64,000 nt of DNA from an uncultured Thiotrichales bacterium (GTDB taxonomy: Bacteria > Pseudomonadota > Gammaproteobacteria > UBA4575): positions 75,371 through 139,370 of the forward strand of contig CAZAOO010000004.1 of NCBI GenBank assembly GCA_964486815.1. The letters are read 5' to 3'. Under the pieces are notes generated by a model. That model saw only the letters and a list, made by a program, of their open reading frames with translations, was not told the origin of the DNA and made no database searches. The position numbers were made by a program, and so were the translations under genes. Below are positions 4,201-32,139 of the stretch, piece after piece. The first letter of the stretch is position 1. Each line of letters starts with the position of its first letter.

Positions 4201-6138
4201 TTAAATATTTGCGCGATTGGCAATAATTTCGTCCACCACTGACGGATCAGCAAGTGTAGAAATATCGCCCAGATTATCAATATCATTCTCTGCAACTTTT
4301 CTTAATATACGTCGCATAATTTTCCCAGAACGGGTTTTTGGTAGGCCAGGCGCCCATTGAATAATATCCGGTTTTGCAAAGGGCCCAATTTCCTTGCGCA
4401 CCAGTTGTACTAACTCTGCTTTTAACGCTTCACTTGTTTCAACTCCAGACATAGGTGTTACATATGCGTAAATACCCTGACCTTTAATATCATGCGGGTA
4501 ACCCACTACTGCTGCCTCCGCAATTTTTGCATGCAACACTAAGGCACTTTCAACTTCTGCAGTGCCTAGACGATGGCCAGAAATATTTAGCACATCATCG
4601 ACACGACCCGTAATCCAATAATAACCATCGGCGTCACGTTTACATCCATCACCACAAAAATACATTCCAGGATATTGTGAAAAATAGGTTTCTATAAAAC
4701 GTTTATGATCCCCATACACAGAACGCATTTGACCTGGCCATGGAAATTTAATGACTAAGTTACCCTGGCACACACCTTCCAGCTCCTTACCATTTTCATC
4801 AACAATTGCCGGTTGAATTCCAAAGAAAGGCTTACTGGCAGAACCAGGTTTTAAATCAGTTGCACCCGGTAATGGCGTAATCATGTGGCCGCCAGTTTCA
4901 GTTTGCCACCAAGTATCAACAATCGGGCAACGGCCATCTCCGACAATATGGTAATACCACTCCCACGCTTCTGGATTGATAGGCTCCCCGACAGTACCTA
5001 ACAAACGCAGACTTTTACGACTGGTTTTCTTAACCGCATCATCACCTAAACTCATTAATGCACGTAGAGCTGTAGGCGCTGTATAAAAACTAGCAACATT
5101 GTGCTTATCACAAACTTGCCAAAAACGGCTGCCATCAGGGTAATTTGGAACACCTTCAAACATAACCGTGATCGCACCATTACACAGCGGCCCATAAAGA
5201 ATATAAGTATGCCCGGTTACCCAACCTACATCGGCTGTACACCAATAGACCTCTCCATCTTGATAATCAAATACGTATTTATGAGTTATAGCTGCATATA
5301 AGAGGTAACCCCCAGTAGTATGTAAAACCCCTTTTGGTTTTCCGGTTGATCCTGAGGTATACAAAATAAACATTGGATCTTCAGCATCCATATGCTCAGG
5401 CTCACATACATCTGTCACAGTTGAAATCTGTTCGTGATACCAACAATCACGTGAATCATTCCAACTTATATTGCCATCTGTACGCTTTACAACTAATACA
5501 GTGCTCACATTAGGACACTCTTCTAATGCTTTATCTGTATTGGCTTTTAATGGTACTGGCTTGCCACCACGAACACCTTCATCTGCTGTTATAACCGTTT
5601 GGCAATCTGAATCTAATATACGATCACGCAATGAGTCTGGTGAAAAACCACCAAACACAACTGAATGCACTGCACCTATGCGAGTACATGCCAGCATTGC
5701 AAAAGCTGCTTCAGGAATCATCGGCATGTAAATACATACACGATCACCTTTTTTAACGCCGCGAGATTTTAAAACGTTTGATAGTTTGCATACTTCTTGA
5801 TGCAATTCTCTGTAACTGAATTTTTTATCATCATTGGGTTTATCACCTTCCCAGATGATTGCAGTCTGATCTCCTCGTGTATCTAGATGTCGGTCAATGC
5901 AGTTATATGAAACATTTAATCTAGCACCTTCAAACCAACGAATATGTCCTTTGCTATAATCCCAATCTAGTACGTTGTCCCATTTCTTATACCAGGTAAC
6001 AAATTTATCTGCCTGCTCTGCCCAAAATACTTCGGGATTTTCAATTGAAGCCTGATACATTGATTCATATTTTGCCGCATCTATATGTGCAGTTGACGAA
6101 ACTGATGCTGGTACAGGATAAACTTTATCTGTTGACAT
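4201..6138 (-). CDS. acs: Acetyl-CoA synthetase (AMP-forming)
   Basis: 645 aa with a typical Acs N-terminus ([25 protein letters not shown]), an AMP-binding motif [11 protein letters not shown] and a conserved C-terminal lysine region. Confidence 0.95.
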
Positions 6139-6180: not shown

Positions 6181-8505
6181 TTATGCAGTTAATCGAAGAT
6201 ACAGCATAGGTAACTTTTCGGGCAAGTGTTCCAGTTTATCAATTACTGCTACATTTTTTCTGCCAAAAATTTTGTGTAAATAATTATCTCCACCTGCATC
6301 CAGACCCACACAAAAAGTATCTATACCTAAACGTGAAATAGACCGCACAACCTTTCGCGCATCTTCAACCAAGTATTGTTGATCCTCGACATCTATATCT
6401 GAAGGTTCACCATCAGAAATTACCAGCAACAACCTTCTATGGGTGCGTTGCGCCACTAAATCGCGTGTGGCATGCCTCATAGCTGCACCCATCCGGGTTG
6501 ATAATTTACCCTGTAAACCTGCCAAATAAGCACGTGCTGTGCTGTCATAGGGAGAATTGAAATCTTTTATACGATAATAATGCACATCTTCTTTGCCATC
6601 GGAACAAAATGCAGCAATAGCAAATGGGTCATTTAATTCAGACATTGCATAGGCAAGCAAACTAGTGGCCTGAATTTCAAGTTCTAATATTGATGCACCT
6701 GAAGCTTGAACTTTATCATTGGTTGAGTTAGAAATATCTAACAATACCATGACTGATAAATCACGATGTTTTCGTTCAGTAGTACTGTAAATTCTAGGAT
6801 CAGGTGTATCATCCATCCTGCGACTAATAACTGCATTAATACAAGCATCTAGATCTAAAGACTCACCTACACTTTGATGATGCAACCGTTCTGGCAAACT
6901 TACTTTAGCGGTTTGAATTAAATTTGTTATTCGATTAACAAGATTATTATGTTTTTCTAGAATTCTCTCAATTTTATATGCATTTCCAAAATCAGGAAAA
7001 TATTCCAACACACAGGCCCAGTTTGGTCGCTCAGACCCGGTTAAGTAATCATATTCTGGATAACGTACGGCAACTTCGGATTCTCTTTGTTCTGAATCTG
7101 TACTTTCTCGTGCATGATATTGTTGCTCATCTTCATCATTTTCCTTTTTATCTTGCTCACTAGAAGAATCATCTTCGACTTCTTCACGATCCATGTGCAT
7201 AGCTTCGATAAAGACTCCTTCATTATCTTCTTCCTGATCTTGTTGATCTCCAAAGTCCCACAAGCCCATATTATCGTCTCTATAAGCAGGTTCTACGACA
7301 TAAGTTTTAGCATTAAATTGTGCACGTAACTGACCTAAATCATTACCTAAAAGCACCCCGATCTTTCGGCACATAGCTGGATTCGTGATGTCATTTTGCG
7401 GATCAAAAAACATGTCACGGCCCTTTTGCACCCAACCATCTTTGTCTTTATATTGCTTATCGATAAGTGCACGTGCGAGTCGTGTTAATAACAGTGGCAC
7501 TAGTTTTGGTCCACTAGGTTTTGCAATATGAAATGGCTGCCAAAGTTTTTGCAAACCTGGAAAGGATTGCATCGCCAGATACTCAACACGAGCATCTTCA
7601 AGTAACGAAACCAAGGCTACTTGTATAGGTTTTAGCTCACCTAATGGAAATATCGTAGTTGAATGCACCAAGTGTGCGCCTACATGCGCAAGCCCTGCAC
7701 GAAAGATTTTCTCAGCTTGTTCACCATGAAAACCTGGAAACACTTCGGGAACCCTCACTACCCCATTACTAATTGAAATTCTCCTTAACGATAATGGTGA
7801 TGTAGACACTGGAAGATCTCGAATTGGTGGGCGTAAACTCCAAAGAGAAATCAAATAAAGCTTTAAACGACGATCAAGATCAGTGAAAACAACATCACCT
7901 GCTTCGTGTCTAAACCACTTTTCTGATTCAGGGTCAGTAAAATTAAAATAACTAATTTGACGTAAGGTATCATCTCCGGTTGAGCGCAACCCAGTTAGCA
8001 CCCAAGATTTAAATTGATCAGGCGTTAAGGTAGAAACAATCTTTTGTGTGCGTTCTAGAACCGCCAGCAAAGATTCGGGGGCGTTATAGATTATTTCTTC
8101 AATAGTCTTTAGCCAAAAAGTAAATGCCTGTATAGATTTTAATTCATGCGCCGCATGCACTGCAGATTTTGGCAACAATTCTGCTGCAGCTCGATTAACT
8201 TTAATTGCAGTTAACGAAACCGTTGGCGCTAAATTAATTGCTGCTTCAGGATTTAATAGTTTAACTAATTTTGGAGAATGGCGTGCATAAGAAAGAGGTA
8301 TTAAAGCACCATAACCAGCATGTGAAAGTTTATTGCAAGCAGCTTCCCAAAGCGGGAAATATTCATTTGGAAATTGATGTTTTGCTTCATTAATAAGAAA
8401 AGCTAGACGCGCATCGGGGTCTCCTGGTTCTTTTACAGGCTCTTGTCCTGGTTTTAAGGAATGCGAAGAAATTGCATACTTTCCTCGCGTCGTGGAGGCA
8501 GCCAA
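6181..8505 (-). CDS. cbbO: CbbO/NorD-type von Willebrand factor A (VWA) domain protein, partner of the adjacent MoxR-AAA+ ATPase
   Basis: 774 aa. A C-terminal VWA domain with MIDAS motif DISNS (VMVLLDISNSTND) and LLLVISDGEP. A central highly acidic low-complexity stretch. The length fits CbbO (~770 aa) better than NorD (~600 aa). It is translationally adjacent to the cbbQ-like gene. Confidence 0.75.
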   Translation of the reverse strand: MAASTTRGKYAISSHSLKPGQEPVKEPGDPDARLAFLINEAKHQFPNEYFPLWEAACNKLSHAGYGALIPLSYARHSPKLVKLLNPEAAINLAPTVSLTAIKVNRAAAELLPKSAVHAAHELKSIQAFTFWLKTIEEIIYNAPESLLAVLERTQKIVSTLTPDQFKSWVLTGLRSTGDDTLRQISYFNFTDPESEKWFRHEAGDVVFTDLDRRLKLYLISLWSLRPPIRDLPVSTSPLSLRRISISNGVVRVPEVFPGFHGEQAEKIFRAGLAHVGAHLVHSTTIFPLGELKPIQVALVSLLEDARVEYLAMQSFPGLQKLWQPFHIAKPSGPKLVPLLLTRLARALIDKQYKDKDGWVQKGRDMFFDPQNDITNPAMCRKIGVLLGNDLGQLRAQFNAKTYVVEPAYRDDNMGLWDFGDQQDQEEDNEGVFIEAMHMDREEVEDDSSSEQDKKENDEDEQQYHARESTDSEQRESEVAVRYPEYDYLTGSERPNWACVLEYFPDFGNAYKIERILEKHNNLVNRITNLIQTAKVSLPERLHHQSVGESLDLDACINAVISRRMDDTPDPRIYSTTERKHRDLSVMVLLDISNSTNDKVQASGASILELEIQATSLLAYAMSELNDPFAIAAFCSDGKEDVHYYRIKDFNSPYDSTARAYLAGLQGKLSTRMGAAMRHATRDLVAQRTHRRLLLVISDGEPSDIDVEDQQYLVEDARKVVRSISRLGIDTFCVGLDAGGDNYLHKIFGRKNVAVIDKLEHLPEKLPMLYLRLTA

Positions 8506-8514
8506 AGTATCACC

Positions 8515-9318
8515 TCACGCGCATGCTGCAATTGCCGAACTCAATGCATTACGAATATCGAGATCATCTGTAATCGGCAAAACTAACGCCACTTCGCAGG
8601 CTTCTTCTAAAGGAATCCCCTTGGATATAAGTTGCGCTGCGTAAATTAACATACGTGTGGATGCGCCCTCATCTAAACCATGGCCTTTTAAATTTCTAGA
8701 ACGTTCAGAAATTTTCACAAGTTTGGCAGCAGTTTTCATATCTATACCAGATTCATGTGTAATAATTTTCGCTTCGTCTTCAGCTTTAGGATAATCAAAA
8801 TCTATTGCTCCAAATCTTTGCTTAGTTGATTCTTTCAAATCTTTTAATACACTTTGATAACCAGGATTATAAGAAATTACTATTTGGAAATCTTTATTAG
8901 CTTTGATGACTTCATTTTTCTTCTCTAATGAAAGAATACGTCGATTATCTGTTAAGGAATGAATCACCACGCTGGTATCTTGCCTGGCTTCAACAATTTC
9001 ATCTAAGTAACAAATTGCACCATGGCGCACCGCTAAGGTTAATGGGCCATCATGCCAAACCGTACCATCAGCATCGAGTAAATAGCGCCCCACCAGATCC
9101 GAAGCGGTCATATCTTCATGACAAGAAACAGTAATCAGTGGTTTTTTAAGTTTCCATGCTATGTATTCCACAAAACGTGTTTTGCCACAGCCAGTGGGGC
9201 CTTTAAGCATCATCGGCATACGGTTTGCATATGCCGCCTCAAACAACTGAATTTCGTTATGAGTAGGAGAGTAGTAAGGCTCTTCCGTAATTAAATAATC
9301 ATCAAGATTCATACCCAT
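8515..9318 (-). CDS. cbbQ: CbbQ/NorQ/NirQ-type MoxR-family AAA+ ATPase
   Basis: 267 aa with Walker A GPTGCGKT and Walker [11 protein letters not shown]. Strong family signature strings are [35 protein letters not shown] and PITDDLDIR, typical of CbbQ/NorQ. The size is identical to CbbQ. Confidence 0.85.
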
Positions 9319-9370: not shown

Positions 9371-9418
9371 TAAGAAAAAGTAAAGTGAAGACACAAATAA
9401 GCCTTCACCTTACTTTTT
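9371..9418 (-). terminator. Intrinsic terminator hairpin between amiE and cbbQ; it reads as a terminator on either strand
   Basis: GTAAAGTGAAG...CTTCACCTTAC forms an 11-bp stem with 1 mismatch. It is flanked by an A-run on one side and a T-run on the other. Confidence 0.5.
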
Positions 9419-9436: not shown

Positions 9437-10471
9437 CTATCTGTGGGTCTTAGGGTTTGGAATGCCTTCAATTTCACACTCTTCTGTGCCCACTGTGGTT
9501 CTGGTAATGGATTCCACCATTTCACGTGCAGCTTCAGGATCTGTAATCCATTTTTTGTAAAAATCAAACGGACATTCTGCAACACCTGTGTCACCTTCAC
9601 CTGAATTAATTTTTCCGGTGTAGCCACGATGCAAAAGTTTGAACAGATGGTTTTCGGATTGCTGATTCTTGCGTGCATCACGAATTAGTGAAACCGATAA
9701 ATTGGCATATTGAACACCCATATCTTCTTCACCACATTCACCTAATGTACGTCCATCAAATCCAACGATGGCCGAATGACCAAAGTAAGAATACACTCCA
9801 TCAAATCCAGTAGCATTTGCAACTGCGACATAGGTGTTATTCATCCATGCCATAGCTTTTGCAACCAGGACTTGTTGATCCTTTGATGGATACATATAGC
9901 CTTGGCAACGGACTATTAGCTCTGCACCTTTCATTGCACAATCACGCCAAATTTCAGGGTAATTGCCATCGTCACAAATTATCAAACTAATCTTTAAACC
10001 CTTAGGACCATCAGAGACATAAGTACAATTTCCTGGATACCAACCTTCAATCGGCACCCACGGCATGATTTTGCGATACTTCTGAACAATTTCGCCTTTA
10101 TCATTCATCAAAATTAGCGTGTTATAAGGCGCTTTATTAGGGTGATCTTCATGACGTTCTCCAGTTAAGGAAAACACACCCCAAACTTTTGCATTACGAC
10201 ACGCTTCCGCAAATATTTCAGTTTCATCGCCTGGAATGCTCGATGCAGTTTCATACATCTCGGTTTCGTCATACATAATTCCATGCGTACTGTATTCAGG
10301 GAAAATGACTAAATCCATTCCTGGTAATCCCACTTTCATGCCTTCGATCATATTCGCGATATTGCGAGCATTATCGAGCACTTCTGCTTTGGTATGCAGA
10401 CGTGGCATCTTGTAGTTGACAACTGCAACACCTACTGCATCTTTACTACTTGATATATCACCGTGATACAT
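9437..10471 (-). CDS. amiE: Aliphatic amidase (acylamide amidohydrolase), nitrilase superfamily
   Basis: 344 aa. It is near-collinear with the P. aeruginosa AmiE sequence recalled from memory ([97 protein letters not shown]). The catalytic Glu/Lys/Cys context is conserved. Confidence 0.9.
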
Positions 10472-10591: not shown

Positions 10592-10636
10592 AAAAAAAGC
10601 CCTCGCAGATATAGAATATCCGTGAGGGCTTTTTTG
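10592..10636 (-). terminator. Strong intrinsic terminator/attenuator in the amiE leader, candidate target of AmiR antitermination; bidirectional
   Basis: On the minus strand this reads GCCCUCACGGAUAU-UCU-AUAUCUGCGAGGGC followed by U7, a ~14-bp stem with one mismatch. It lies ~120 nt upstream of the amiE ATG and downstream of amiR. An A7 run on the opposite side makes it bidirectional. Confidence 0.55.
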
Positions 10637-10799
10637 CCCAATCTTCTCAATTACAGAAGCATTATTGGTTCTGTATAATTTTAACTAGCTAGAATGCTAT
10701 GTGTTAATTAACTTTTTAGACTAATTTATTGAACACGTCAAGGGTGATTTTAATCATAATGCTATTTATATTATTGCTTAAAACTTGTATTTACAGGTT

Positions 10800-11402
10800 T
10801 TATTTAAGATTAACTTCTAAGGTTTTATCAGCGTTTACAATCTCTTGAGCAATATCTTCTGTGGTTAAACGTCGTTGCATGGCCCTACTGCGAATAAATT
10901 CATACGCTTGTTCATGACTAATATCATTCGCCCTCTCGAGTATTGCAACTGCATGTTCGACCGCATGAATCTTTCTTAACTTAGTCTCAAGTTTTTCAAC
11001 TCTGGAAGTCAACACCAATTCTTTTCGCCAACGAGTTCTTGCAATTACTAAATTAGCCAATAATCCAAATGGACGCACCGGTGTATTGATAATTCCATGG
11101 GCACCTATGTCATACACGGTCTGTAAAACTGTTGGGTTTTCATAATCAACAATAGCAATTATGGTAGGGCTATTCCTCTCATCTTTTAGCCATGATGGTT
11201 TCTCAGTGAAGGGATGCTCATGTAAAGATTGCAAAAGAACAACATCAGTATCGTTATGAATATCATTTGGACATGGCCAAACCATTCGAACTTTACAACC
11301 AATCCGTTCAATATGCTGGCAGATATCGCCACCTTGTTGATCTTGAGGATGCACAACAAGCACCCGCAATTTACGCAAGTCTTTTAAAATCTCTAAAGCC
11401 AT
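10800..11402 (-). CDS. amiR: ANTAR-domain transcription antiterminator response regulator (AmiR-like)
   Basis: 200 aa with a pseudo-receiver N-terminal domain (LRKLRVLVVHPQDQ.., IERIGCKV) and a C-terminal ANTAR coiled-coil/helix region (KLETKLRKIHAVEHAVAIL...EQAYEFIRSRAMQRRL). It parallels P. aeruginosa AmiR. Confidence 0.85.
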   Translation of the reverse strand: MALEILKDLRKLRVLVVHPQDQQGGDICQHIERIGCKVRMVWPCPNDIHNDTDVVLLQSLHEHPFTEKPSWLKDERNSPTIIAIVDYENPTVLQTVYDIGAHGIINTPVRPFGLLANLVIARTRWRKELVLTSRVEKLETKLRKIHAVEHAVAILERANDISHEQAYEFIRSRAMQRRLTTEDIAQEIVNADKTLEVNLK

Positions 11403-11404
11403 CG

Positions 11405-12583
11405 TTAATTTAACTCACTTTCAAAGTATTGCATACGATCCAAGCTTTTATCAGAACCAAGATCAACGAGATAAGGGTCGGGCTTAACTGGTGCATAAGT
11501 TTCAGCAACAATTTGAAACTTACCTTGATCATCAACTCGACCAATTTTAGGCCACAAATAGGTATGATGATTATCGGGATCAATTTGTATAGTCCCTTCT
11601 GGTGCATCAAAAATGGTCCCAAGTGTCGCAGTACGCACAATATCCGTATCAATTGTGCCTACACGGCGCAATACATCTGCAAAAAGATTAACTTGAAAAT
11701 AAGCGGCTTCGGCACATGCATTGGTGCATTCTGATGCTCCAAACATGGCTTTATAACTGTTTACAAATAGTAAATTAGCAGGAGTATCTACAGTTTCAAA
11801 ATAAGGCGCTGCTGTAATATGTCCTGCGCCAACTTCATGGCCCATAGCAGTTACTTCTGCCTCACTAGTGGTTAGACTTGCTATAGGCATTTGTCTTGGC
11901 TGCAAACCTGCACGCCAGTAACTTTTATAAAATTTACTTGTTGCAGCTCCAACTATCGTACTGAATATCACATTCGGACGTTTTTCTAGAATATCGACCA
12001 ATATAGGATCAATATCTTTATAATTTGCATCCAGTGGAAGATATTTTTCTGCAACTACCTTCCCTCCTGTAGATTGCAAAATATCTTTCATAATTCGATT
12101 TGATTCATAAGGATAAATATAATTAGATCCGACAAAATAAAAACGATTACCATATTGACTGAGCAAATAACGCGCTAAGAACATACTGTTTTGATTGGGT
12201 GTCGCGCCGGTATAGATAACATTTTTTGAATATTCAAACCCTTCGTACAATGTTGGGTACCATAATAATCCGTTATAGTCTTCCACGATCGGGATAACTG
12301 CCTTGCGAGCACTTGACATATAACATCCAAAAATTATTTTCGCAGAGTCTTTTGTAATTAAACGTTTAGCTAGTTGTCGAAATTTCTCTGGGTTGGATTC
12401 CGGGTCATAAACTATTGGCTCGATACGCCTACCATTCACACCTCCACGAGTATTTATTTCTCGAATGGCAAGCAAAGTTGCATTTAATTGCGTCTTCTCA
12501 ATAACTGATGTAGCACCAGTTTTAGAAAATAAAACACCTACTTTCCATGACAACTTGATCATTAGTCTGCCTTTAAGTAACAC
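11405..12583 (-). CDS. amiC: Amide-binding negative regulator/sensor, cytoplasmic type-I periplasmic-binding-protein fold (AmiC-like)
   Basis: 392 aa with no signal peptide. Strings shared with AmiC as recalled: FGCYMSSARKAV.P, YPT.YEGFEYS.N..Y.G..PNQNS, FVGS.YIYP.ESN, PIASLTTSEAEV, APYF...DTPA. It is coupled to amiR by a 3-nt spacing. Confidence 0.85.
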   Translation of the reverse strand: MLLKGRLMIKLSWKVGVLFSKTGATSVIEKTQLNATLLAIREINTRGGVNGRRIEPIVYDPESNPEKFRQLAKRLITKDSAKIIFGCYMSSARKAVIPIVEDYNGLLWYPTLYEGFEYSKNVIYTGATPNQNSMFLARYLLSQYGNRFYFVGSNYIYPYESNRIMKDILQSTGGKVVAEKYLPLDANYKDIDPILVDILEKRPNVIFSTIVGAATSKFYKSYWRAGLQPRQMPIASLTTSEAEVTAMGHEVGAGHITAAPYFETVDTPANLLFVNSYKAMFGASECTNACAEAAYFQVNLFADVLRRVGTIDTDIVRTATLGTIFDAPEGTIQIDPDNHHTYLWPKIGRVDDQGKFQIVAETYAPVKPDPYLVDLGSDKSLDRMQYFESELN

Positions 12584-12726: not shown

Positions 12727-13575
12727 GTGGTAAATTTTTTCAAGCTTACAATGTCTGGCATCGCCCAGGTCATTGTTCAACACTGCCCACTATCAGGATT
12801 GATTATCTTAGCAAGTATTGGTATTCACTCGTGGAAAATGGCACTAGGTGCTTTATTTGGCGCATTTATTGGTACTGCGACTGCAAATATTCTCAACTTC
12901 AACAGGAAAGATATAACCTTAGGCATCTATGGTTATAACGCTACATTAATAGGAATTGCAAATATCTACTTTTTCCAAACTGCAACTATGTCAGTAATCG
13001 TATTTATCTTGAGCTGTATAGCATCCGTATTTATAACCCAATGGATCCCAAAATATCTAAAACTACCAGCATTTACTGCACCTTTTGTTTTTATCACCTG
13101 GGTCATCATTCTCTTTGCGGATGTAATAAAATTAAAACCATCAAATGACATTCTTAATTTCGCGGACAACATTCATACAGCTGGTCTTGGAGAAGCGGTA
13201 GGTCAGGTATATATACAGGGAAACGGAATCACTGGCGCAATAATGTTATTAGCTATTTTGCTTTGCTCAAAATCTAGTTTCATATGGGCTTTAGTTGCAA
13301 CAACATTAACATGGCTATTGGCACAATCACTAAATTACCCTGATACTAATATTCAAAATGGTCTTTATGGTTTCAGCGCTGTTTTAACCGCTATCGCTTT
13401 ACAAAATATGAAGCCGATCATATTTCCATTGACCGGTATCGTATTAACTGTTTTTGTTATGCATACTTTCATACTATCGGGTTGGCCATCATTAACCGCA
13501 CCTTTTGTGCTTATATCATGGGTGATTACGATTGTTTACCAAAATTATGAAAAAATCTTTAACAAATCCACATGA
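12727..13575 (+). CDS. UT-family urea channel/transporter
   Basis: ~10-TM protein with two internally homologous halves, each carrying the UT signature (GIYGYNATLIGIA / NGLYGFSAVLTAIA and LPAFTAPFVFITW / LTAPFVLISW). The start is uncertain: GTG at 12727 or ATG at 12751. Confidence 0.65.
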   Translation: MVNFFKLTMSGIAQVIVQHCPLSGLIILASIGIHSWKMALGALFGAFIGTATANILNFNRKDITLGIYGYNATLIGIANIYFFQTATMSVIVFILSCIASVFITQWIPKYLKLPAFTAPFVFITWVIILFADVIKLKPSNDILNFADNIHTAGLGEAVGQVYIQGNGITGAIMLLAILLCSKSSFIWALVATTLTWLLAQSLNYPDTNIQNGLYGFSAVLTAIALQNMKPIIFPLTGIVLTVFVMHTFILSGWPSLTAPFVLISWVITIVYQNYEKIFNKST

Positions 13576-15174: not shown

Positions 15175-16071
15175 ATGTGCGGAATCGTAGGTCTATTTGC
15201 AAAATCCAAACACATCGAGGCTGAACTAGGTACCTATCTAGCGCAAATGCTAGATGAAATGTGTGAGCGCGGGCCTGATAGTGCAGGTATTGCTATATAT
15301 AGAAACCCAACCGACAAAAATCATACCAAGATTACACTTCTGAGCATAAACCTAGAATATGACTGGAATGCAGTAGCACATGATTTAGAACAGCATTATG
15401 AAGGTAAAGTTGAATTCGAAGTTAGAGGAAATCAGGCAACTTACGTTGTACCTGGTAAGAAAGATGGTATTAATACTTGGCTAAGCAGCCATCACCCTGA
15501 ACTTACATTAACCAGTTCAGGAAGTGTAATTGAAATTTATAAGGCTAAAGGCCGACCATCTCATATCATTAATCGATTTAATGTTAAAGAGCTTACGGGA
15601 ACCCATGCATTAGGGCATACACGTATGGCAACAGAAAGCGCGGTCACAACTAATCATTCCCATCCTTTTTCTACTGGTGAAGATTTATGTCTAGTGCATA
15701 ACGGCTCATTATCAAACCACAACCGTTTACGCAGAACATTACAAAAAGAAGGAATTGTATTTCATACAGATAATGACAGCGAAGTAGCTGCAGGTTATCT
15801 CGCATACCGATTACAACAAGGCGACAGCTTAGATCAAGCACTTGAAGCTGCAATTGAAGACTTAGACGGTTTTTATACGTTTGCAGTAGGAACTAAAGAT
15901 GGATTTGCAGTAATGCGGGATCCAGTAGCTTGCAAACCTGCGATCATTGCCGAAACTGATGACTGGGTTGCCATGGCATCTGAGTATCGTGCTATCGCTG
16001 TACTACCTGGTGCAAAAACTTCAAATTGTTGGGAACCTGAACCCGCAAAAATCTATAGCTGGAAACATTAA
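15175..16071 (+). CDS. mgsA: N-methylglutamate synthase subunit A (class-II glutamine amidotransferase domain, GOGAT N-domain homologue)
   Basis: MCGIVGL N-terminal nucleophile Cys2, Ntn amidotransferase fold. It is followed by the GXGXG and FMN-domain genes. Confidence 0.75.
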   Translation: MCGIVGLFAKSKHIEAELGTYLAQMLDEMCERGPDSAGIAIYRNPTDKNHTKITLLSINLEYDWNAVAHDLEQHYEGKVEFEVRGNQATYVVPGKKDGINTWLSSHHPELTLTSSGSVIEIYKAKGRPSHIINRFNVKELTGTHALGHTRMATESAVTTNHSHPFSTGEDLCLVHNGSLSNHNRLRRTLQKEGIVFHTDNDSEVAAGYLAYRLQQGDSLDQALEAAIEDLDGFYTFAVGTKDGFAVMRDPVACKPAIIAETDDWVAMASEYRAIAVLPGAKTSNCWEPEPAKIYSWKH

Positions 16072-16093
16072 ATAAACATAACGTAAATAAAAA

Positions 16094-16780
16094 ATGACTG
16101 ATTTTGATTTAAGCCAGACAGAACTACGCGAATTAAATTCAGCGTTACATAATTCTGAACTCACAAGCAACCAAACTAACTGGAAAGTTACCAATACCAA
16201 TGGAGCCCATGCTATAGCGGTAGGAATTGATGCTTCATTACATATATTAGTAGATGGACACGTTGGATATTACTGCGCAGGCATGAACAAACTAGCTACG
16301 GTAACTATAAATGGACACTGTGGTCCTGGTGTTGCAGAAAATATGATGTCGGGAATTGTTTGGGTTAAAGGTAATGCCTCTCAGTACGCGGGGGCTACAG
16401 CACATGGTGGATTACTTGTTATCGAGGGTAATGCTAGTTCACGTTGTGGAATTTCTATGAAAGGCGTAGACATTGTTGTTAAAGGTAATGTCGGTCATAT
16501 GAGTGCATTTATGGCACAAACAGGTCGTTTAGTTGTCTGTGGTGATGCAGGAGATGCGCTTGGTGATTCATTATATGAAGCTAGGATATATATACGCGGT
16601 AAAGTTGCCAGCTTAGGCGCAGACTGTATTGAAAAACCCATGCAAGCAGAACACCAGAAAGAACTAAAAGAATTACTTTCTCGCGCAAATTTAAGCGAAT
16701 TCAATGTGAATGAATTTCGCCGTTATGGATCTGCACGAAATTTATATAATTTTAATATTGATAACGTAGAGGCTTACTAA
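16094..16780 (+). CDS. mgsB: N-methylglutamate synthase subunit B (GXGXG domain, GOGAT C-terminal domain homologue)
   Basis: Repetitive beta-helix GXGXG motifs (GNASQYAGATAHGGLLVIEGNASSRCGISMKGVDIVVKGNVGH). Confidence 0.75.
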   Translation: MTDFDLSQTELRELNSALHNSELTSNQTNWKVTNTNGAHAIAVGIDASLHILVDGHVGYYCAGMNKLATVTINGHCGPGVAENMMSGIVWVKGNASQYAGATAHGGLLVIEGNASSRCGISMKGVDIVVKGNVGHMSAFMAQTGRLVVCGDAGDALGDSLYEARIYIRGKVASLGADCIEKPMQAEHQKELKELLSRANLSEFNVNEFRRYGSARNLYNFNIDNVEAY

Positions 16781-16793
16781 AAGAACCTTATCT

Positions 16794-18125
16794 ATGTCAC
16801 AACAAAACGATAATAACTCGTGGCTTAAGGAATCTGCCACCTTCCCTCGCCATGTAATCGCAGAAATTCAACGTGCCGCAAACACAGGGCTTTATGATAT
16901 TCGGGGTTATGGGGCAAAGCGTCATGTACCTTCGTTTGATGATTTACTATTTCTAGGCGCAAGCATGTCGCGTTACCCTCTTGAAGGCTATCGGGAAAAA
17001 TGTGATACAAATGTTACGATCGGTACGCGTTTTGCCAAAAAACCCATTGAGTTAAAAATTCCAATTACTATTGCAGGCATGAGCTTTGGTGCATTATCTG
17101 CTCCCGCAAAAGAAGCATTAGGCCGTGGTGCAGATGCAGTAGGAACTAGCACTACTACAGGTGATGGTGGCATGACACCAGAAGAACGAGGTCATTCATC
17201 TAAACTCGTTTATCAACTACTACCTTCTCGCTATGGTATGAATCCAGATGATCTACGCAAAGCTGATGCTATTGAAATAGTTGTGGGTCAAGGTGCTAAA
17301 CCTGGCGGTGGCGGTATGTTGTTAGGACAAAAAATTAGTAAACGCGTAGCAGCTATGCGTAATTTGCCACAAGGAATAGATCAACGTAGCGCATGCCGAC
17401 ATCCTGACTGGACTGGTCCGGATGACTTGGAAATTAAAATATTAGAATTGCGTGAAATTACTGATTGGCAAAAACCCATTTATATAAAAATTGGTGCCTC
17501 GCGCACGTACTTTGACACCATGCTGGCTGTTAAAGCGGGTGCCGATGCTATTGTTTTAGATGGCATGCAAGGTGGTACCGCAGCAACCCAAGATGTATTT
17601 ATTGAACATGTGGGCATTCCTATCTTACCTGCAGTGAGATTAGCCGTCGATGCACTTGAAGAAATGGATATGCATAGGAAAGTACAATTGATTGTCTCTG
17701 GTGGAATACGCAGCGGTGCAGATGTTGCTAAAGCATTAGCACTTGGAGCGGATGCAGTATCTATAGGCGTTGCGGCTCTAATTGCTTTAGGTGACAACAG
17801 CCCTGACCTCGAAGAGGAATATCGGAAACTTGGCACCTCTGCTGGTTACTATGATGACTACCAAGACGGCAAAGACCCCGCTGGTATCACCACGCAAAAT
17901 GAAGAACTCGCAAAACGTTTTGACCCGGTTCAAGGCGGTCGAAAGTTAGCTAACTATTTAAGAGTGCTCACCTTAGAAGCGCAAACTCTTGCGCGCGCTT
18001 GCGGCAAGAGCCATGTACATAACCTTGAACCCGAAGATATGGTAGCACTAACTCTTGAGGCTGCTGCAATGGCAAGAGTACCCTTAGCAGGCACAAGCTG
18101 GATTCCAGGCAACAATAATTTTTAA
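16794..18125 (+). CDS. mgsC: N-methylglutamate synthase subunit C (glutamate synthase FMN-binding domain homologue)
   Basis: GltS FMN-domain hallmarks: IAGMSFGALS, QGAKPGGGG, DG.QGGTAA, SGGIRSGADVAKALALGAD. Confidence 0.8.
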   Translation: MSQQNDNNSWLKESATFPRHVIAEIQRAANTGLYDIRGYGAKRHVPSFDDLLFLGASMSRYPLEGYREKCDTNVTIGTRFAKKPIELKIPITIAGMSFGALSAPAKEALGRGADAVGTSTTTGDGGMTPEERGHSSKLVYQLLPSRYGMNPDDLRKADAIEIVVGQGAKPGGGGMLLGQKISKRVAAMRNLPQGIDQRSACRHPDWTGPDDLEIKILELREITDWQKPIYIKIGASRTYFDTMLAVKAGADAIVLDGMQGGTAATQDVFIEHVGIPILPAVRLAVDALEEMDMHRKVQLIVSGGIRSGADVAKALALGADAVSIGVAALIALGDNSPDLEEEYRKLGTSAGYYDDYQDGKDPAGITTQNEELAKRFDPVQGGRKLANYLRVLTLEAQTLARACGKSHVHNLEPEDMVALTLEAAAMARVPLAGTSWIPGNNNF

Positions 18126-18210
18126 AAAACTCAACATTACAAAGAATCGTTAAAAATTAAAATTTTTTCTAAATAATATTTATACTAATTAACATAGAGA
18201 AAGAATCACT

Positions 18211-19518
18211 ATGACAAAAGATTTAGCTCAAATAGCAAAAACAAAAGGCATTAAATATTTTCTTATAAGTTTTGTAGATCTCTTTGGTGTACTTCGTGCA
18301 AAACTAGTGCCAATGCGTGCAATCAAAGGCATGCAAAAAGATGGTGCTGGTTTTGCAGGCTTTGCTGCATGGTTAGATTTAAGTCCTGCAGACTCAGATA
18401 TGTTTGGAGTTCCTGATCCAGACAGCCTTATTCAGCTACCTTGGAATCCTGAAATTGGCTGGTTAGCTGCAGATTTATGGATGGATGGAAAAGAAGTTGA
18501 GGCTTCACCGCGTGTCGCATTAAAAAAGCAAATCGCAAAAGCACAAAAAAAAGGCTTCCGTGTGAAAACCGGTGTCGAATGTGAATACTTTTTATTAAAC
18601 CAAGATGGTACTGAGCTATTCGATACTTATGATACACAGACTAAACCTTGTTATGACCAACTAGCATTGATGCGCCGTTACCCACTTGTGAAAGAGATAT
18701 GCGATTGCATGTTAGAGCTAGGATGGGGGCCATATCAAAATGACCATGAAGACGCCAATGGTCAGTTTGAAATGAATTGGGATTATAACGATGTATTACT
18801 TACTGCAGACAGGCATGTATTTTTTAAATATATGACCAAAACCATTGCAGAAAAACATGGCATGCGCGCAACTTTTATGCCGAAACCATTTTCAAATTTA
18901 ACTGGTAATGGATGCCATTCGCATATTTCCATTTGGGATAAAACTGGCAAGAAGAATTTATTCATAAGTAAAACAGATGAACTAGGATTATCCAAACTTG
19001 CCTATCATTTTCTCGGCGGGGTACTGGAGCATGCAACCTCAATGTGTGCAATCCTAAATCCAACGGTTAATAGCTATAAAAGAATCAATGCTCCACGCAC
19101 CACATCTGGCGCCACCTGGTCTCCAAGTTCTATCACCTATACTGGCAATAACCGTACTCACATGATTCGAGTTCCCGATGATGGGCGCTTTGAATTACGT
19201 TTGATGGATGGTGCAACCAACCCTTACCTATCACAAGCCGCCATCATCGCGGCAGGTCTGGAAGGAGTTCAAAACAAACGTGATCCGGGTGAGCCAAGCC
19301 ATATAAATATGTATGAAGAAGGCCACACAATTAAAAACGCAAAGAAACTACCTTCTAATCTTTTGGATGCTTTGCGATTGTTAGAAAAAAATAAGATATT
19401 AAAACAAGAACTAGGGTCTGATCTTGTTGATGCTTACGTGAAGTTAAAAATGATTGAATGGCATCAATTCACAAGCCACCTTAGCCAGTGGGAAAGACAA
19501 AACACACTTGACTGTTAA
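18211..19518 (+). CDS. gmaS: Gamma-glutamylmethylamide synthetase (glutamine synthetase-family, lacking the adenylylation loop)
   Basis: 435 aa GS-like catalytic domain (GVECEYFLL, NGCHSHISIW, NSYKRI). It is sandwiched between the mgs and mgd genes, as in known methylamine NMG-pathway clusters. Confidence 0.75.
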   Translation: MTKDLAQIAKTKGIKYFLISFVDLFGVLRAKLVPMRAIKGMQKDGAGFAGFAAWLDLSPADSDMFGVPDPDSLIQLPWNPEIGWLAADLWMDGKEVEASPRVALKKQIAKAQKKGFRVKTGVECEYFLLNQDGTELFDTYDTQTKPCYDQLALMRRYPLVKEICDCMLELGWGPYQNDHEDANGQFEMNWDYNDVLLTADRHVFFKYMTKTIAEKHGMRATFMPKPFSNLTGNGCHSHISIWDKTGKKNLFISKTDELGLSKLAYHFLGGVLEHATSMCAILNPTVNSYKRINAPRTTSGATWSPSSITYTGNNRTHMIRVPDDGRFELRLMDGATNPYLSQAAIIAAGLEGVQNKRDPGEPSHINMYEEGHTIKNAKKLPSNLLDALRLLEKNKILKQELGSDLVDAYVKLKMIEWHQFTSHLSQWERQNTLDC

Positions 19519-19610
19519 AATTAATAATAAAATGTACTTTACAACTATTTCTATAATAAAACTTATTTCAGTAATATTGTGTCTTTTACCAAAGTGATTT
19601 GTAAATAAAG

Positions 19611-20852
19611 ATGCCCCTTGGGCTATTAAAATATGGCTTTAGTAAAGCCCATCCTGTTGAGCGGCATTTCAAAAAACCCGCCTCGCTTAAGTCTAGCTAT
19701 GATATTGTAATTGTAGGAGGCGGTGGGCATGGTCTTGCTACTGCATACTATCTTGCCAAGCAATACGGCATCACCAATGTCGCAGTTTTAGAAAAAGGAT
19801 ATCTTGCAGGTGGTAATACTGCTCGAAATACTGCAATTATTCGATCCAATTATTTAACTCCTGATGGCGTTCGTTTTTACGATGAATCTGTAAAACTATT
19901 CCAAAATTTAAGCAATGAGCTTGATTACAATATCCTTTACTCAGAAAGAGGCCATCTAACCTTAGCGCATACAGATGCTGCAATGCGTACTTCGCGTTGG
20001 CGCGCGGAAGTGAACAAACATCTTGGTGTTAATTCTGAAGTCGTTTATCCAGATGAGCTTGCAAAACTATGCCCACATTTGAACTTAAGCCAAAATGTTC
20101 GTTTCCCAATAATGGGTGCGTTATATCATCCACCAGGAGCTATCGCTAGGCATGATGCTGTAGCCTGGGGTTATGCACGTGGCGCATCTGACCGCGGTGT
20201 AGAAATTCACACGCACACTGAAGTTACTGGTTTTGATATTGAAAATGATCGTGTCGTTGGTGTCAAAACAAATCGTGGTGATATTCGCTGCGGTAAAGCA
20301 CTACAAGCAGTAGCCGGGTTGAGTTCAGATGTTTCTAAACTTGCAGGATTTAAACTACCAATTAAATCAATACCCTTGCAAGCTTGTGTCACTGAACCTG
20401 TAAAACCTTTTTTAAATATAATTGTTGTATCTGGCTCACTGCATGTTTATGTATCACAATCATCACGTGGTGAACTTGTGATGGGTGCTTCCAGTGACCC
20501 TTACCCACTTTACTCAACACGCTCAACTTTAGAATTTAAAGAAGAACTAATGATGCATTTGCTAGAACTTTTCCCTTTTGTTGGAAAATTAAAAATATTG
20601 CGTCAATGGGCAGGAATTACTGATATGACCCCAGACTTTAGCCCGGTAATGGGTTTCACTCCAATACAAAACTACTTTATTGATGCTGGCTGGGGTACCT
20701 GGGGATTTAAAGCAACGCCCGTCTGTGGTAAGCGTATGGCTGAAACTTTAGCTACCGACAGACTCCCCGACATACTTAAACCATTTGAGCTAGAACGTTT
20801 TTATCGATTCGAGCAAGTCGGTGAGCGTGGTGCAGCTTCTGTTGGACATTAA
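19611..20852 (+). CDS. mgdA: N-methylglutamate dehydrogenase subunit A (SoxB-like FAD oxidoreductase)
   Basis: Dinucleotide-binding motif VIVGGGGHGLATAYYLA and homology to the heterotetrameric sarcosine oxidase beta subunit. Confidence 0.75.
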   Translation: MPLGLLKYGFSKAHPVERHFKKPASLKSSYDIVIVGGGGHGLATAYYLAKQYGITNVAVLEKGYLAGGNTARNTAIIRSNYLTPDGVRFYDESVKLFQNLSNELDYNILYSERGHLTLAHTDAAMRTSRWRAEVNKHLGVNSEVVYPDELAKLCPHLNLSQNVRFPIMGALYHPPGAIARHDAVAWGYARGASDRGVEIHTHTEVTGFDIENDRVVGVKTNRGDIRCGKALQAVAGLSSDVSKLAGFKLPIKSIPLQACVTEPVKPFLNIIVVSGSLHVYVSQSSRGELVMGASSDPYPLYSTRSTLEFKEELMMHLLELFPFVGKLKILRQWAGITDMTPDFSPVMGFTPIQNYFIDAGWGTWGFKATPVCGKRMAETLATDRLPDILKPFELERFYRFEQVGERGAASVGH

Positions 20853-20876
20853 TATCTACTTGATAGACATGAAACA

Positions 20877-21164
20877 ATGAAATTAATGCCCTGCCCTGTA
20901 AATGGATTGCGTAACATCTCTGAATTTATTTGTGGAGGCGAACTTATAAATATGCCTGATCCAACTTCTGGTAGCGACCATGATTGGGCAGAATATCTAT
21001 TCATTGAAAACAATACTAAAGGCTTTGTAAGTGAATGGTGGATGCATGTGCCTACATCTTATTGGTTTATTGCTGAACGTAATACTGAGACAGAAGAAAT
21101 AATTAAAACTTACCCTGCTAACAAACTATTTAAACAACGAATAGATTTTAAAGAGAGCAAATAA
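20877..21164 (+). CDS. mgdB: N-methylglutamate dehydrogenase subunit B (SoxD-like delta subunit)
   Basis: 95 aa with the CPxxG...EF.Y.G pattern of the sarcosine oxidase delta subunit (MPCPVNGLRNISEFICGGE). Confidence 0.7.
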   Translation: MKLMPCPVNGLRNISEFICGGELINMPDPTSGSDHDWAEYLFIENNTKGFVSEWWMHVPTSYWFIAERNTETEEIIKTYPANKLFKQRIDFKESK

Positions 21165-21187
21165 GAAATTTCTCTAGCTATTAAGAT

Positions 21188-24094: not shown

Positions 24095-24100
24095 TTCACT

Positions 24101-24811
24101 ATGCCTAACAACACAATCACACCAGATAAATTTATACGACGTAGTTTTTTGTATAGAAAATTTGATGAACCTCAAACGACTTGGGAAGAAGTAAATGGCT
24201 ATGCAATAGTTTCTTACGTCAATAATAAAACTAACAATGCTCAAAATTTAGCTTTATGCGATTTAAGCTATTTGCAACGAATAGGTTTTAAAGGCGCTGG
24301 TGCCTGTGATTGGCTAAAGACTCAAAATATAAAAATTCCTAAGGATATAAATACAGCACTGACTACAGCGGATGACTGCATCGTCGCCAGACTTGGAAAC
24401 AACGATATATTGATATTAGACAGTATAAAAAACCAATCTAACGTACCAAAGACTTTAGAACAATCTTGGCAGCAAGACTATTCACAATCCAATAAGCCTC
24501 ACGGATTCATAGTGCCGCGACAAGATAGTCATGCATGTTTTAGTATAAGTGGAGTATGTGTTGCTGAAATGTTTTCGAAATTATGTGCAATTGACCTTCG
24601 TATGACTAAATTTGAAAATAATATGATCGTACAGACTTCTATGGCACGTCTTGGGGCAATCATAATTCGCCACGACTTAAACACACTAACAAATTATCTG
24701 GTATTAGTGGAAAGTGCCTCAGTAGAATATCTCTGGGATTGCATCATTGATGCTATGCAAGAATTCGATGGTCAAATTATTGGAACTTCTGCATTACTTA
24801 AATTAACCTAA
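24101..24811 (+). CDS. mgdD: N-methylglutamate dehydrogenase subunit D (SoxG-like gamma subunit)
   Basis: 236 aa. Assigned by size and position immediately after the SoxA-like gene, with a 6-nt gap. Confidence 0.65.
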   Translation: MPNNTITPDKFIRRSFLYRKFDEPQTTWEEVNGYAIVSYVNNKTNNAQNLALCDLSYLQRIGFKGAGACDWLKTQNIKIPKDINTALTTADDCIVARLGNNDILILDSIKNQSNVPKTLEQSWQQDYSQSNKPHGFIVPRQDSHACFSISGVCVAEMFSKLCAIDLRMTKFENNMIVQTSMARLGAIIIRHDLNTLTNYLVLVESASVEYLWDCIIDAMQEFDGQIIGTSALLKLT

Positions 24812-26231: not shown

Positions 26232-26285
26232 TAGCATTCATATTTTTCTATTAAGATTAAATTTTATTTATTTATAAAATTAAAC

Positions 26286-28361: not shown

Positions 28362-28441
28362 ATTCTCTTTTTATGAATTCTGGCTCATTGAAGTTTGGAC
28401 AAAAATATAGTCTGAAGCTAGAACATACATCTATCCCAGAT

Positions 28442-29492: not shown

Positions 29493-29636
29493 TTAAAAAT
29501 TTTTTTGAGGCACAACAAACATTCGATTCTAACAACTCTGAGATTGGCATCCGAGACGCTCTGCGCATACTTAACCAGTAGCAACAAACCACGTGAGGCT
29601 TTATTGCTGGCCGCCACTCAAACGTAAGGAGAATTT

Positions 29637-32100: not shown

Positions 32101-32139
32101 TTATAAGAACCGCACTATAGAATCTGGAGAATTAACAAA

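Follow-up and report, generated by a model that had tools for sequence, protein, structure and literature searches.

The locus described here lies in a stretch of 64,000 nucleotides (the window) of contig CAZAOO010000004.1 (positions 75,371 to 139,370, forward strand; assembly GCA_964486815.1) from an uncultured Thiotrichales bacterium. It contains two adjacent genes, one encoding a MoxR-type AAA+ ATPase of 267 amino acids (hereafter Q) and the other a protein of 774 amino acids with a C-terminal VWA domain (hereafter O), downstream of amiE, which encodes an aliphatic amidase. Both open reading frames (ORFs) are found on the minus strand exactly where a first-pass annotation, made from the sequence alone, had placed them, and their AAA_5, CbbQ_C and VWA domains are confirmed. 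Read along this strand, the order is amiC, amiR, a leader terminator, amiE, a hairpin, Q, O and acs. The first-pass annotation had put the pair immediately after amiE and before acs on one strand; the order and the strand hold, but amiE and Q are parted by a spacer of 118 nt that contains the hairpin. In this study, we report that amiE-Q-O is a conserved module and that AmiE carries the same C-terminal motif that CbbQ/CbbO (CbbQO) machines require on RuBisCO, and we consider it likely that Q/O is a CbbQO-type AAA+/VWA remodeller whose client is AmiE, most likely a repair 'activase'.

The Walker A (G40-PTGCGKT47) and Walker B (D106/E107) motifs of Q are intact, and the Pfam families AAA_5 and CbbQ_C match it at 2e-33 and 4e-32, respectively. 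Q is approximately 72% identical to CsoCbbQ of H. neapolitanus (PDB entry 5C3C; phmmer E = 2.6e-123), 67% to AfCbbQ2 of A. ferrooxidans (6L1Q; E = 1.1e-114) and 55% to NorQ, the values on trimmed columns being 67.0, 64.9 and 52.4%. The TTG start codon of O sits 9 nt past the stop codon of Q, which is overlapped by the ribosome-binding site (RBS) GAGGTG; in related loci the gap between the two genes is mostly 4–15 nt. O matches the Pfam VWA family (2e-8) and aligns over 764 columns (O residues 32–773; 31% identity) with a RuBisCO-linked CbbO encoded beside form I RuBisCO on a Cereibacter plasmid, whereas its alignment with the solved NorD is confined to the last ~300 residues (~468–774), the VWA domains being ~33–36% identical. 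The mid-domain residues H274, H278, E303, D304, R306, E308, RDDN409–412 and W416 are common to the Cereibacter and Nitrobacter CbbOs, not to NorD. The five residues of the MIDAS site are the same in each of the 75 amiE-linked O proteins and do not change in CbbO or NorD either; mutation of this site deprives CbbO of its activase function (PMC4660213).

An AlphaFold (AF2) model of O calculated from 91 homologues (mean predicted local distance difference test, pLDDT, 79.6; an earlier run with 17 sequences gave 58.7 and left the VWA domain unmodelled) comprises an N-terminal helical part (~30–222), a mixed middle part (~228–400) to which the CbbO-specific motifs are assigned, a disordered acidic linker (~404–476), a long β-hairpin 'finger' (478–502) and the VWA domain (~575–774). 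Its best fold matches are the VWA/finger modules of NorD in NorQ complexes (E = 7e-17), followed by the MIDAS domain of Rea1/MDN1. Because of the full-length homology of O, the CbbO-specific motifs, the MIDAS site and the NorD-like fold of finger and VWA domain, the pair is a true member of the CbbQ/CbbO family by sequence and architecture. The first-pass annotation had seen hallmark motifs of either CbbQ/CbbO or NorQ/NorD, of which the former is borne out by motifs and full-length homology and the latter is restricted to the C-terminal match of O. Many O homologues are named 'NorD' in databases; this systematic mis-annotation is corrected here. A short form of O (~580 amino acids; L083, L100, L101, L109, L116 and others) that is devoid of the N-terminal helical domain, a part folded with confidence in the model, occurs in Burkholderiales, together with a more divergent Q (53–62% identity). 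It is still linked to amiE, and therefore this domain is not needed for the association with the amidase.

The pair is not an orphan, as had been assumed in the first-pass annotation; amiE-Q-O is a conserved module. With an O alignment as the seed, a genome-collection scan yielded 80 loci, and amiE stands just before Q-O in all 72 of those with upstream DNA, down to an O identity of 41% (linkage was scored within ±4.5–10 kb throughout). These loci come from gammaproteobacterial metagenome-assembled genomes (MAGs), Marinomonas, Sedimenticola, Kiloniellaceae, Pelagibius, Azospirillum, Mesorhizobium, Nitratireductor, Shinella and Thioclava. Plasmids of Labrenzia/Roseibium, Shinella, Agrobacterium, Brucella anthropi, Rhizobium etli, Azospirillum, Aestuarium, Paraburkholderia aromaticivorans and Burkholderia arboris also carry the module, and a CbbQ-type gene lies beside amiE in approximately 26 of 60 listed plasmid amiE records (counted from coordinates). 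In an independent metagenome scan seeded with AmiE rather than with Q or O, the pair was present in 46 of 61 assessable loci. The synteny spans alpha-, beta- and gammaproteobacteria. The amiC/amiR genes precede or follow the core depending on the locus, the transporters, acs and urease vary by lineage as amiC/amiR do, and in some loci the interval from amiE to Q is occupied by a permease and an α/β-hydrolase, by amiS or by an entire urease cluster; amiE is the sole constant partner of the Q/O clade. With queries taken from annotated plasmid loci, tblastn found no match to RbcL, RbcS, NorB or NorC in the window at E ≤ 1e-5, in agreement with the first-pass statement that no RuBisCO is nearby. 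Across 87 loci (the 80 O-seeded ones plus plasmid loci), RbcL/RbcS were absent except from two RuBisCO control loci, and norB/norC except from the Paracoccus nor control locus.

Several variants of the module were encountered. Inserts of 1.2–2.5 kb between amiE and Q occur in L068, L069, L138, L150 and L175 and on the plasmids NZ_CP084753.1 and NZ_CP059897.1; of the four scanned for ORFs, two encode a cytosine/purine-family permease and an α/β-hydrolase (L068, L175), one encodes the hydrolase alone (L150) and that of L138 has no Pfam match. The permease and hydrolase genes also adjoin the Paraburkholderia locus and may belong to the amide module as an additional accessory pair. On plasmid pB of Ancylobacter polymorphus (L097, 10001–19298), amiE is followed by ureE, ureF, ureAB, ureC, ureG and ureD and then by a convergent Q-O pair. 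Urease genes lie directly 3′ of amiE in the metagenome loci L126, L137, L159, L161, L168 and L170 as well, the His-Arg tail of AmiE described below being kept, which suggests a combined amide/urea nitrogen module. On a megaplasmid of Acidithiobacillus caldus (L086, 4891–7821), an autotroph with RuBisCO systems of its own, the product of amiE ends in ...RHK, Q is missing, and the O gene that comes after amiE is broken into two ORFs among insertion-sequence elements; the module here seems to be in decay. In addition to amiE-Q-O, an alphaproteobacterial MAG (L039, CAWEZX010000005.1, 14045–22011) holds another pair of the CbbQ/O type, the Q of which is 63% and the O 31% identical to its counterpart in the window. 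The three ORFs flanking this pair have weak Pfam matches of the tubulin/FtsZ-like kind (E~1e-6), and none of them ends in His-Arg/Lys; this is a third context for such pairs. Near-identical gamma- or alphaproteobacterial amiE-Q-O contigs binned as 'uncultured Mycobacterium sp.' and 'Candidatus Poseidoniales archaeon' (L002, L037) probably reflect MAG binning errors.

Phylogenetic placement, which the first-pass annotation had proposed, separates these pairs from those serving RuBisCO. In the neighbour-joining (NJ) tree of Q, the amiE-linked sequences, including that of the window and excluding that of Paraburkholderia, form one clade (bootstrap 67%), four RuBisCO-linked CbbQs form a separate clade (83%) and NorQ lies outside both. 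The O tree gives the same picture with weaker support, the amiE-linked clade having a bootstrap of 53% and two RuBisCO-linked CbbOs grouping at 100%, and the true norCBQD locus of Paracoccus aminovorans is far off in both trees. The O family is large (1171 clusters at 50% identity, E ≤ 1e-30); an NJ tree that included 131 unannotated cluster representatives had an unresolved backbone (internal branches 0.00–0.05), and only the anchored trees were used. On this analysis, amiE-linked Q/O are phylogenetically apart from RuBisCO-linked CbbQ/O, and the data point to a large, widespread clade that is sister to the RuBisCO-linked pairs.

A C-terminal HK/R motif distinguishes the RuBisCO large subunits that are associated with cbbQ/cbbO from other RuBisCOs, in which it is lacking (Tsai et al., 2015; PMC4660213). 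When one or two residues are deleted from this tail, or one alanine is added, both activation by CbbQO and stimulation of its ATPase are abolished; the His in the penultimate position is critical, and an 11-mer tail peptide stimulates the ATPase activity of Q2O2 (PMC4660213). A later study confirmed the co-variation of tail and CbbQO and traced activase specificity to the final three residues (PMC8718961). The RbcL adjoining CbbQ/O in our Cereibacter control locus ends in ...VQHR. The AmiE of the window ends in ...NPKTHR and is the only one of its 69 ORFs of at least 100 amino acids to end in His-Arg/Lys; Acs (...RANI), AmiC, AmiR, the UT-family protein, Q and O do not. Among 226 AmiE positions conserved at ≥97%, only four discriminate the proteins with Q/O from those without, and the penultimate residue is one of them.

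This tail is found in 124 of 125 Q/O-linked AmiE proteins: in all 73 from the O-seeded genome loci (a set with no unlinked class), in 45 from the AmiE-seeded metagenome loci, the single other tail being VHA, and in all six from plasmids. Where Q/O was unseen, the tail was present in seven and absent from eight metagenome loci, and it was absent from all 11 plasmid loci. Conversely, Q/O was found in none of the 19 unlinked loci with other tails, which include ...GTK, ...SNY, ...MDA, ...SAR and ...AAK. In the metagenome set the association gives p = 1.7e-5 by Fisher's exact test, kinship being ignored. The sequence before the final dipeptide differs in length and composition among the linked proteins (...NPKTHR, ...NQKTATHR, ...NEKEDASHR, ...HADPAHR). 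When the tail is excluded from the AmiE alignment used for a tree, lineages that lack both tag and Q/O are dispersed among clades that have both, and parsimony assigns 12 tail-state and 13 Q/O-state changes to nearly always the same branches. Tail and Q/O thus change together many times, and the association is therefore not one of simple inheritance. In these comparisons, AmiE bears the CbbQO recognition motif if, and essentially only if, a CbbQO-type pair adjoins.

Two other AmiE positions, flanking the catalytic E142, were considered as Q/O-specific and rejected: in a larger sample V139 and C149 proved to be lineage markers that also occur in AmiE without Q/O. The Q/O-linked lineage has V139 and C149 and most others have C/T139 and T/R/Q149, and a cysteine appears to swap between the two sites.

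Table 1. Features of the window; positions are counted from its first nucleotide.
Feature	Position	Strand	Description
acs, acetate–CoA ligase	4201..6138	-	645 aa; TIGR02188, 1034 bits; own RBS, 42 nt past O
O, CbbO-type adaptor	6181..8505	-	774 aa; TTG start; C-terminal VWA
O MIDAS residues D590-x-S592-x-S594, T670, D698	6412..6738	-	VWA domain
Q, CbbQ-type MoxR AAA+ ATPase	8515..9318	-	267 aa; ATG start; AAA_5 + CbbQ_C; presumed hexameric motor
18-bp hairpin in amiE-Q spacer	9375..9418	-	Flanking A-run and U-run; spacer minimum free energy -35 kcal/mol, z = -5.1
AmiE C-terminal codons, His343-Arg344	9440..9445	-	Proposed Q/O recognition tag; tail ...NPKTHR
amiE, aliphatic amidase	9437..10471	-	344 aa; nitrilase superfamily; NF009802, 722 bits
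AmiE positions 139/149	10025-10057	-	Lineage markers
Intrinsic terminator, amiE leader	10592..10635	-	A-run, 14-bp GC-rich stem, U-run; presumed AmiR antitermination target
Promoter-like site, amiE leader	10678..10707	-	TTAACA-18-TAAAAT; consensus scan; putative function
amiR, ANTAR-type transcription antiterminator	10800..11402	-	200 aa; AmiR_N 8.8e-38, ANTAR 8.3e-11
amiC-like amide sensor/negative regulator	11405..12583	-	392 aa; cytoplasmic periplasmic-binding-protein fold; Peripla_BP_5 1.5e-145
UT/Yut (urea-transporter family) membrane protein	12727..13575	+	Divergent; Pfam UT 7e-55
N-methylglutamate pathway genes	15175-24811	+	Complete-looking, for methylamine use
gmaS-like gene	18211-19518	+	Glutamine-synthetase-like
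UrtA-like binding protein to urt genes	24936-34671	+
Hybrid histidine kinase	26286-28361	+
urtA/urtBCD(E)	29637-34671	+
DMFA2_C paralogue 1	35564-37963	+	~780 aa; Laminin_G_3 plus C-terminal DMFA2_C (5e-86)
DMFA2_C paralogue 2	42395-44716	-	~780 aa; Laminin_G_3 plus C-terminal DMFA2_C (8e-92)
Branched-chain/amide-type ABC transporter	45149-50515		Adjoins paralogue 2
Urease cluster	51434-57405	+
ureC	52765-54558	+

AmiE of the window has the residues E59, K134, E142 and C166 and is ~83% identical to the G. pallidus amidase (2PLQ). The amiC/amiR genes (together 10800–12583) and the divergent UT gene had gone unmentioned in the first-pass annotation. The amiC product is UrtA-like at a score under the NCBIfam cut-off; its gene lies directly 5′ of amiR, and the amiC-amiR pair recurs in related loci. 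The UT gene adjoining amiC is kept in L001, L004, L005, L007 and L008, and its product is probably the amide/urea uptake channel of the locus; UrtABCDE-like or AmiS/UreI transporters take its place in other lineages. A consensus scan found no terminator-like site between O and acs, and acs is found 3′ of O only in the gammaproteobacterial clade and in L059. The acetamide-assimilation module with acs that had been proposed is thus real in the gammaproteobacterial clade and lies outside the conserved core.

A conserved box, CTTGACG...GTCTAAAAAG, lies approximately 30 nt further 5′ of the promoter-like site in the amiE leader. An alternative hairpin (GGGC-A6-GCCC) overlaps the 5′ arm of the leader terminator, a small 5′ hairpin is also present, and the folding of the whole leader has z = -6.2. 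The arrangement is kept in six gammaproteobacterial loci; the terminator stems differ yet are maintained in L004, L005, L007, L008 and L013. Antitermination by AmiR has been described in P. aeruginosa (PMC12591593), and the leader terminator would be the target of AmiR here. A search with Rfam at gathering thresholds gave no match in the window, and the leader shows no obvious fit to the dual-hexaloop ANTAR motif. The hairpin of the amiE-Q spacer shows compensatory changes in 8 of 11 pairs across 16 gammaproteobacterial loci, and a stable hairpin is present in this spacer in all 74 loci examined; a consensus scan found no promoter-like site there. Its probable role is that of an attenuating terminator, by which amiE would be expressed at a much higher level than Q/O. 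Sub-stoichiometric Q/O would be what is expected of an enzyme and its helper and would match the lower transcript level of amiB than of amiE in P. aeruginosa (PMC12591593).

Beyond the amidase locus, the window contains a complete-looking N-methylglutamate pathway, with mgsABC-like genes (GATase-like, GXGXG and Glu_synthase-like), the gmaS-like gene, a DAO subunit and a 968-residue sarcosine-oxidase-α-like protein (mgd-like). Two paralogues end in DMFA2_C, which is N,N-dimethylformamidase β-subunit-like, and the second of them adjoins an ABC transporter. A UrtA-like binding protein is followed by a hybrid histidine kinase and by urt genes, and a urease cluster is also present, the genes for urea uptake and hydrolysis lying 20–45 kb from the amidase module. 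With amiE, urease, methylamine and DMFA2_C genes together, the window looks like an organic-nitrogen scavenging island.

An analogous DISPLACEMENT is seen at loci where Q/O is missing, amiE there often being accompanied by a different AAA+ protein. Such a gene lies directly 3′ of amiE on a Klebsiella plasmid (urtABCDE-formamidase-amiE-AAA; L089) and on a Halomonas replicon (L098), and beside a divergent acs in Rhodococcus (L088). The Klebsiella and Rhodococcus proteins are stand-alone ClpB-D2-like ATPases (AAA_2 + ClpB_D2-small; ClpB/ClpC matches ~1e-56), and the Halomonas protein is 57% identical to that of Klebsiella (tblastn). The assignment of this AmiB-type family rests on these three proteins; a placement of P. 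aeruginosa AmiB in the CbbX/CfxQ family, which would have offered a second parallel to a RuBisCO activase, was considered and dropped in view of them. In keeping with them, AmiB of P. aeruginosa has been called a Clp-like ATPase with a poorly described role (PMC12591593). The amidase locus of the window has the Pseudomonas-type set of amiE, AmiC sensor, AmiR ANTAR antiterminator and leader terminator in a different order (amiC-amiR-leader-amiE); it contains no ClpB-D2-like ORF, Q/O filling the ATPase slot and the UT-family transporter replacing AmiS. In Burkholderiales, the order is amiE-Q-O-amiC-amiR or amiE-amiS-Q-O-amiC-amiR. The parallel to Pseudomonas amiB that had been drawn in the first-pass annotation thus stands as an analogy and as occupancy of the same operon slot and fails as homology, the AmiB-type ATPases being ClpB-D2-like.

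In the CbbQO and NorQD machines, a Q hexamer binds one O, the VWA finger of which enters the ring while the MIDAS site grips an acidic residue of the client; the client C-terminus occupies a specific pocket, and client binding stimulates ATP hydrolysis, by which the client is remodelled. The C-terminal arm of AmiE embraces the partner subunit beside a deep, closed active-site funnel. By homology, Q would form a hexamer carrying one O adaptor. O would dock onto AmiE through a C-terminal tag, the free ...His-Arg-COOH end of the long arm, and through its MIDAS site on an acidic AmiE residue. ATP hydrolysis by Q would then pull the arm, loosening the buried active site near it. The purpose would most likely be to reopen active sites trapped in dead-end complexes, for instance with urea-like analogues or with thioester adducts stalled on Cys166. 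The amidase of P. aeruginosa is slowly inhibited by urea and hydroxyurea at its active site, a point for which our literature search gave no confirmation, and the amiE-Q-O loci carry transporters for urea-like compounds. Expression would be acetamide-inducible through AmiC/AmiR antitermination, and the hairpin after amiE would hold Q/O sub-stoichiometric. Repair of dead-end complexes is favoured, which accords with O being of the CbbO type in its architecture. The suggestion of the first-pass annotation that the pair remodels a client other than RuBisCO, such as the hexameric amidase, gains strong support from synteny, from the separate clades and from the AmiE tag.

Several considerations weigh against AmiE as the client of a repair activase. 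The amidase-client role is drawn from comparative genomics. The support for the amiE-linked clades is modest (NJ bootstraps of 67% for Q and 53% for O), the tail statistic carries no phylogenetic correction, one Q/O-linked AmiE ends in HA, and seven HR-tailed AmiE proteins have no Q/O within 4.5 kb. Of six such HR-tailed loci scanned downstream, five have urease structural or accessory genes next and the sixth has ureD and then a histidine kinase gene, and they resemble the Ancylobacter locus, in which Q/O lies past the urease cluster and outside the 4.5-kb flank; Q/O may likewise be situated beyond the fetched flank in these loci. A strong terminator-like hairpin parts amiE from Q, and the co-transcription of the two is presumed. 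A paper of 2026 notes the neighbourhood of Q/O and amiE in passing and calls the roles unclear. Amidases approximately 80% identical to AmiE (P. aeruginosa, G. pallidus) have been crystallized. AmiE has no metal cofactor, we know of no documented activase requirement for it, and amidases of the P. aeruginosa/G. pallidus type produced in E. coli show activity although Q/O is absent there. Because AmiE homologues with ~80% identity exist without Q/O, the pair is not an obligatory folding factor.

The last points also bear on a rather unlikely alternative, in which AmiE is the client and the pair acts once, as an assembly or maturation chaperone that builds the hexamer or the strained Cys166 geometry, in the manner of NorQD, which acts on an assembly intermediate. 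NorQ/NorD, the second set of characterized relatives, do act in maturation, and the synteny and the tag fit maturation as well as repair. However, the N-terminal two thirds of O are of the CbbO and not of the NorD type, and close AmiE homologues without Q/O in many lineages, only four discriminating positions in 226 and the activity of the recombinant homologues argue against a special folding need. It is improbable that the client is instead another product of the locus, be it Acs, an amide/urea transporter, AmiC-AmiR or a urease for which Q/O would act as a NorQD-like metal-insertion chaperone. Such a client could be suspected from acs following O in the window and the gammaproteobacterial clade, from the Rhodococcus AmiB-type ATPase being co-oriented with acs rather than with amiE, from the urease cluster between amiE and Q/O in Ancylobacter and the urease genes after amiE in several metagenome loci, and from the earlier proposal that AmiB acts with AmiS in transport (PMC12591593). 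Yet acs, UT, UrtABCDE, AmiS, urease and amiC/amiR come and go while amiE alone is constant, the other candidates in the window (Acs, the transporter, AmiC and AmiR) have no His-Arg/Lys end, and urease has its own UreDEFG accessory system.

The first-pass annotation had also considered that Q/O might be a RuBisCO activase relocated away from cbbL/cbbM; its adjacency to amiE would then be incidental. Q is indeed as close to bona fide CbbQ (65–72%) as to some amiE-linked Q (67–80%), and O has the length and motifs of CbbO. Against this stand the lack of RbcL/RbcS homologues in the window and in the 87 loci other than the RuBisCO controls, the linkage of amiE to the entire Q/O clade, the tag on AmiE itself, the separate clades of RuBisCO-linked CbbQ (83%) and CbbO (100%) and the presence of the module on plasmids of non-autotrophs (Agrobacterium, Brucella anthropi, Roseibium and Azospirillum). 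We reject this explanation as very improbable. Least probable of all is that Q/O are the NorQ/NorD of a nitric oxide reductase encoded elsewhere, as automatic annotation suggests. The homologues carry the name 'NorD', and Q is ~52% identical to NorQ and the VWA domain ~33–36% to NorD, but NorD aligns solely to the C-terminal ~300 residues of O, the rest being CbbO-type, norB/norC are missing from the window and, the Paracoccus nor control apart, from the 87 loci, and the norCBQD locus is distant in the trees.

Repair by a dedicated AAA+ activase is usually treated as a peculiarity of RuBisCO and, to our knowledge, CbbQO is at present known only as a RuBisCO activase. A repair role on AmiE would mean that a large clade, present in three quarters of the assessable AmiE-seeded metagenome loci, serves an unrelated cofactor-free hydrolase with the same two-residue tag, and would generalize the activase concept beyond RuBisCO. 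No paper linking CbbQO to an amidase was found in the literature searched, and the extent of the amiE association, the separation of these pairs from the RuBisCO-linked ones, the H-K/R tag common to AmiE and RuBisCO and the displacement relation with AmiB-type ATPases appear to be new, none having been found there. If the amidase is the client, a small soluble protein with homologue (~80% identical) crystal structures at hand would become available for finding the tail-binding pocket of CbbQO, and such a client would also suggest that the tag might be transplanted to steer the machine to new clients. The 30-year-old question of AmiB in the Pseudomonas ami operon would become directly testable, and in the use of recombinant amidases the tail and helper proteins may affect stability under turnover. 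More tentatively, and with somewhat less than an even chance of being right, His-Lys/Arg-COOH may be a portable 'activase tag' for CbbQO-type machines, the amidase being a second natural class of clients that, as RuBisCO does, traps itself in dead-end complexes and requires repair driven by ATP, and two unrelated AAA+ machines, AmiB and Q/O, having been recruited to it independently. This would provide the first functional explanation for amiB, unexplained since 1995, and the two amidase machines would mirror the convergent RuBisCO activases Rca, CbbX and CbbQO.

Among known systems, the closest to the pair described here is CbbQ/CbbO (Q1O1, Q2O2 and Q3O3 of A. ferrooxidans and CsoCbbQ/O of H. 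neapolitanus; Tsai et al., 2015, 2022). The Q proteins are 65–72% identical and lie next to O in the same order, and O shares with CbbO its length, full-length homology (31%), mid-domain motifs, acidic linker and perfect MIDAS site. In both systems, the client (in the case of AmiE, the proposed client) is encoded upstream and carries a C-terminal H-K/R tag tied to the presence of Q/O. The tag here is on AmiE, a homohexameric nitrilase-superfamily amidase of the Cys-Glu-Lys type which stands in the place of RuBisCO, and the pair belongs to a separate clade found in heterotrophs and on plasmids and is associated with AmiC/AmiR antitermination rather than with CbbR. Because the linkage to RuBisCO fails, the pair should not be filed as a RuBisCO activase, even though it resembles one in every sequence feature tested.

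NorQ/NorD (Paracoccus denitrificans, Jhaorihella thermophila; PDB entries 9QH4–9QHG) likewise combine a MoxR AAA+ hexamer with a VWA partner in which the MIDAS site is kept, and the predicted finger and VWA domain of O superpose on NorD in the NorQ pore with a template-modelling (TM) score of 0.73 normalized to the target. NorD, however, is a ~630-residue protein with an unrelated N-terminal part, and the NorQD client is the membrane-bound cNOR, into which Fe(B) is inserted. In Rea1/Midasin and RavA-ViaA, too, an AAA+ ring is coupled with a MIDAS domain by which a carboxylate of the client is gripped. These systems act on pre-ribosomal factors or respiratory complexes, Rea1 has ring and MIDAS domain fused in one protein, and we know of no C-terminal tag logic in either system. 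AmiB-type ATPases share with Q/O their place beside amiE and the operon slot (amiE-X-amiC-amiR), and the order in Burkholderiales corresponds to that of Pseudomonas, amiE-amiB-amiC-amiR-amiS, the slot of amiB being taken by Q/O. Unlike Q/O, they are single modules with no VWA partner, are non-homologous beyond the AAA+ fold and adjoin an AmiE without the His-Arg/Lys tail. Two unrelated ATP-driven remodellers thus occupy the same slot, and therefore AmiE would seem to benefit from such a function.

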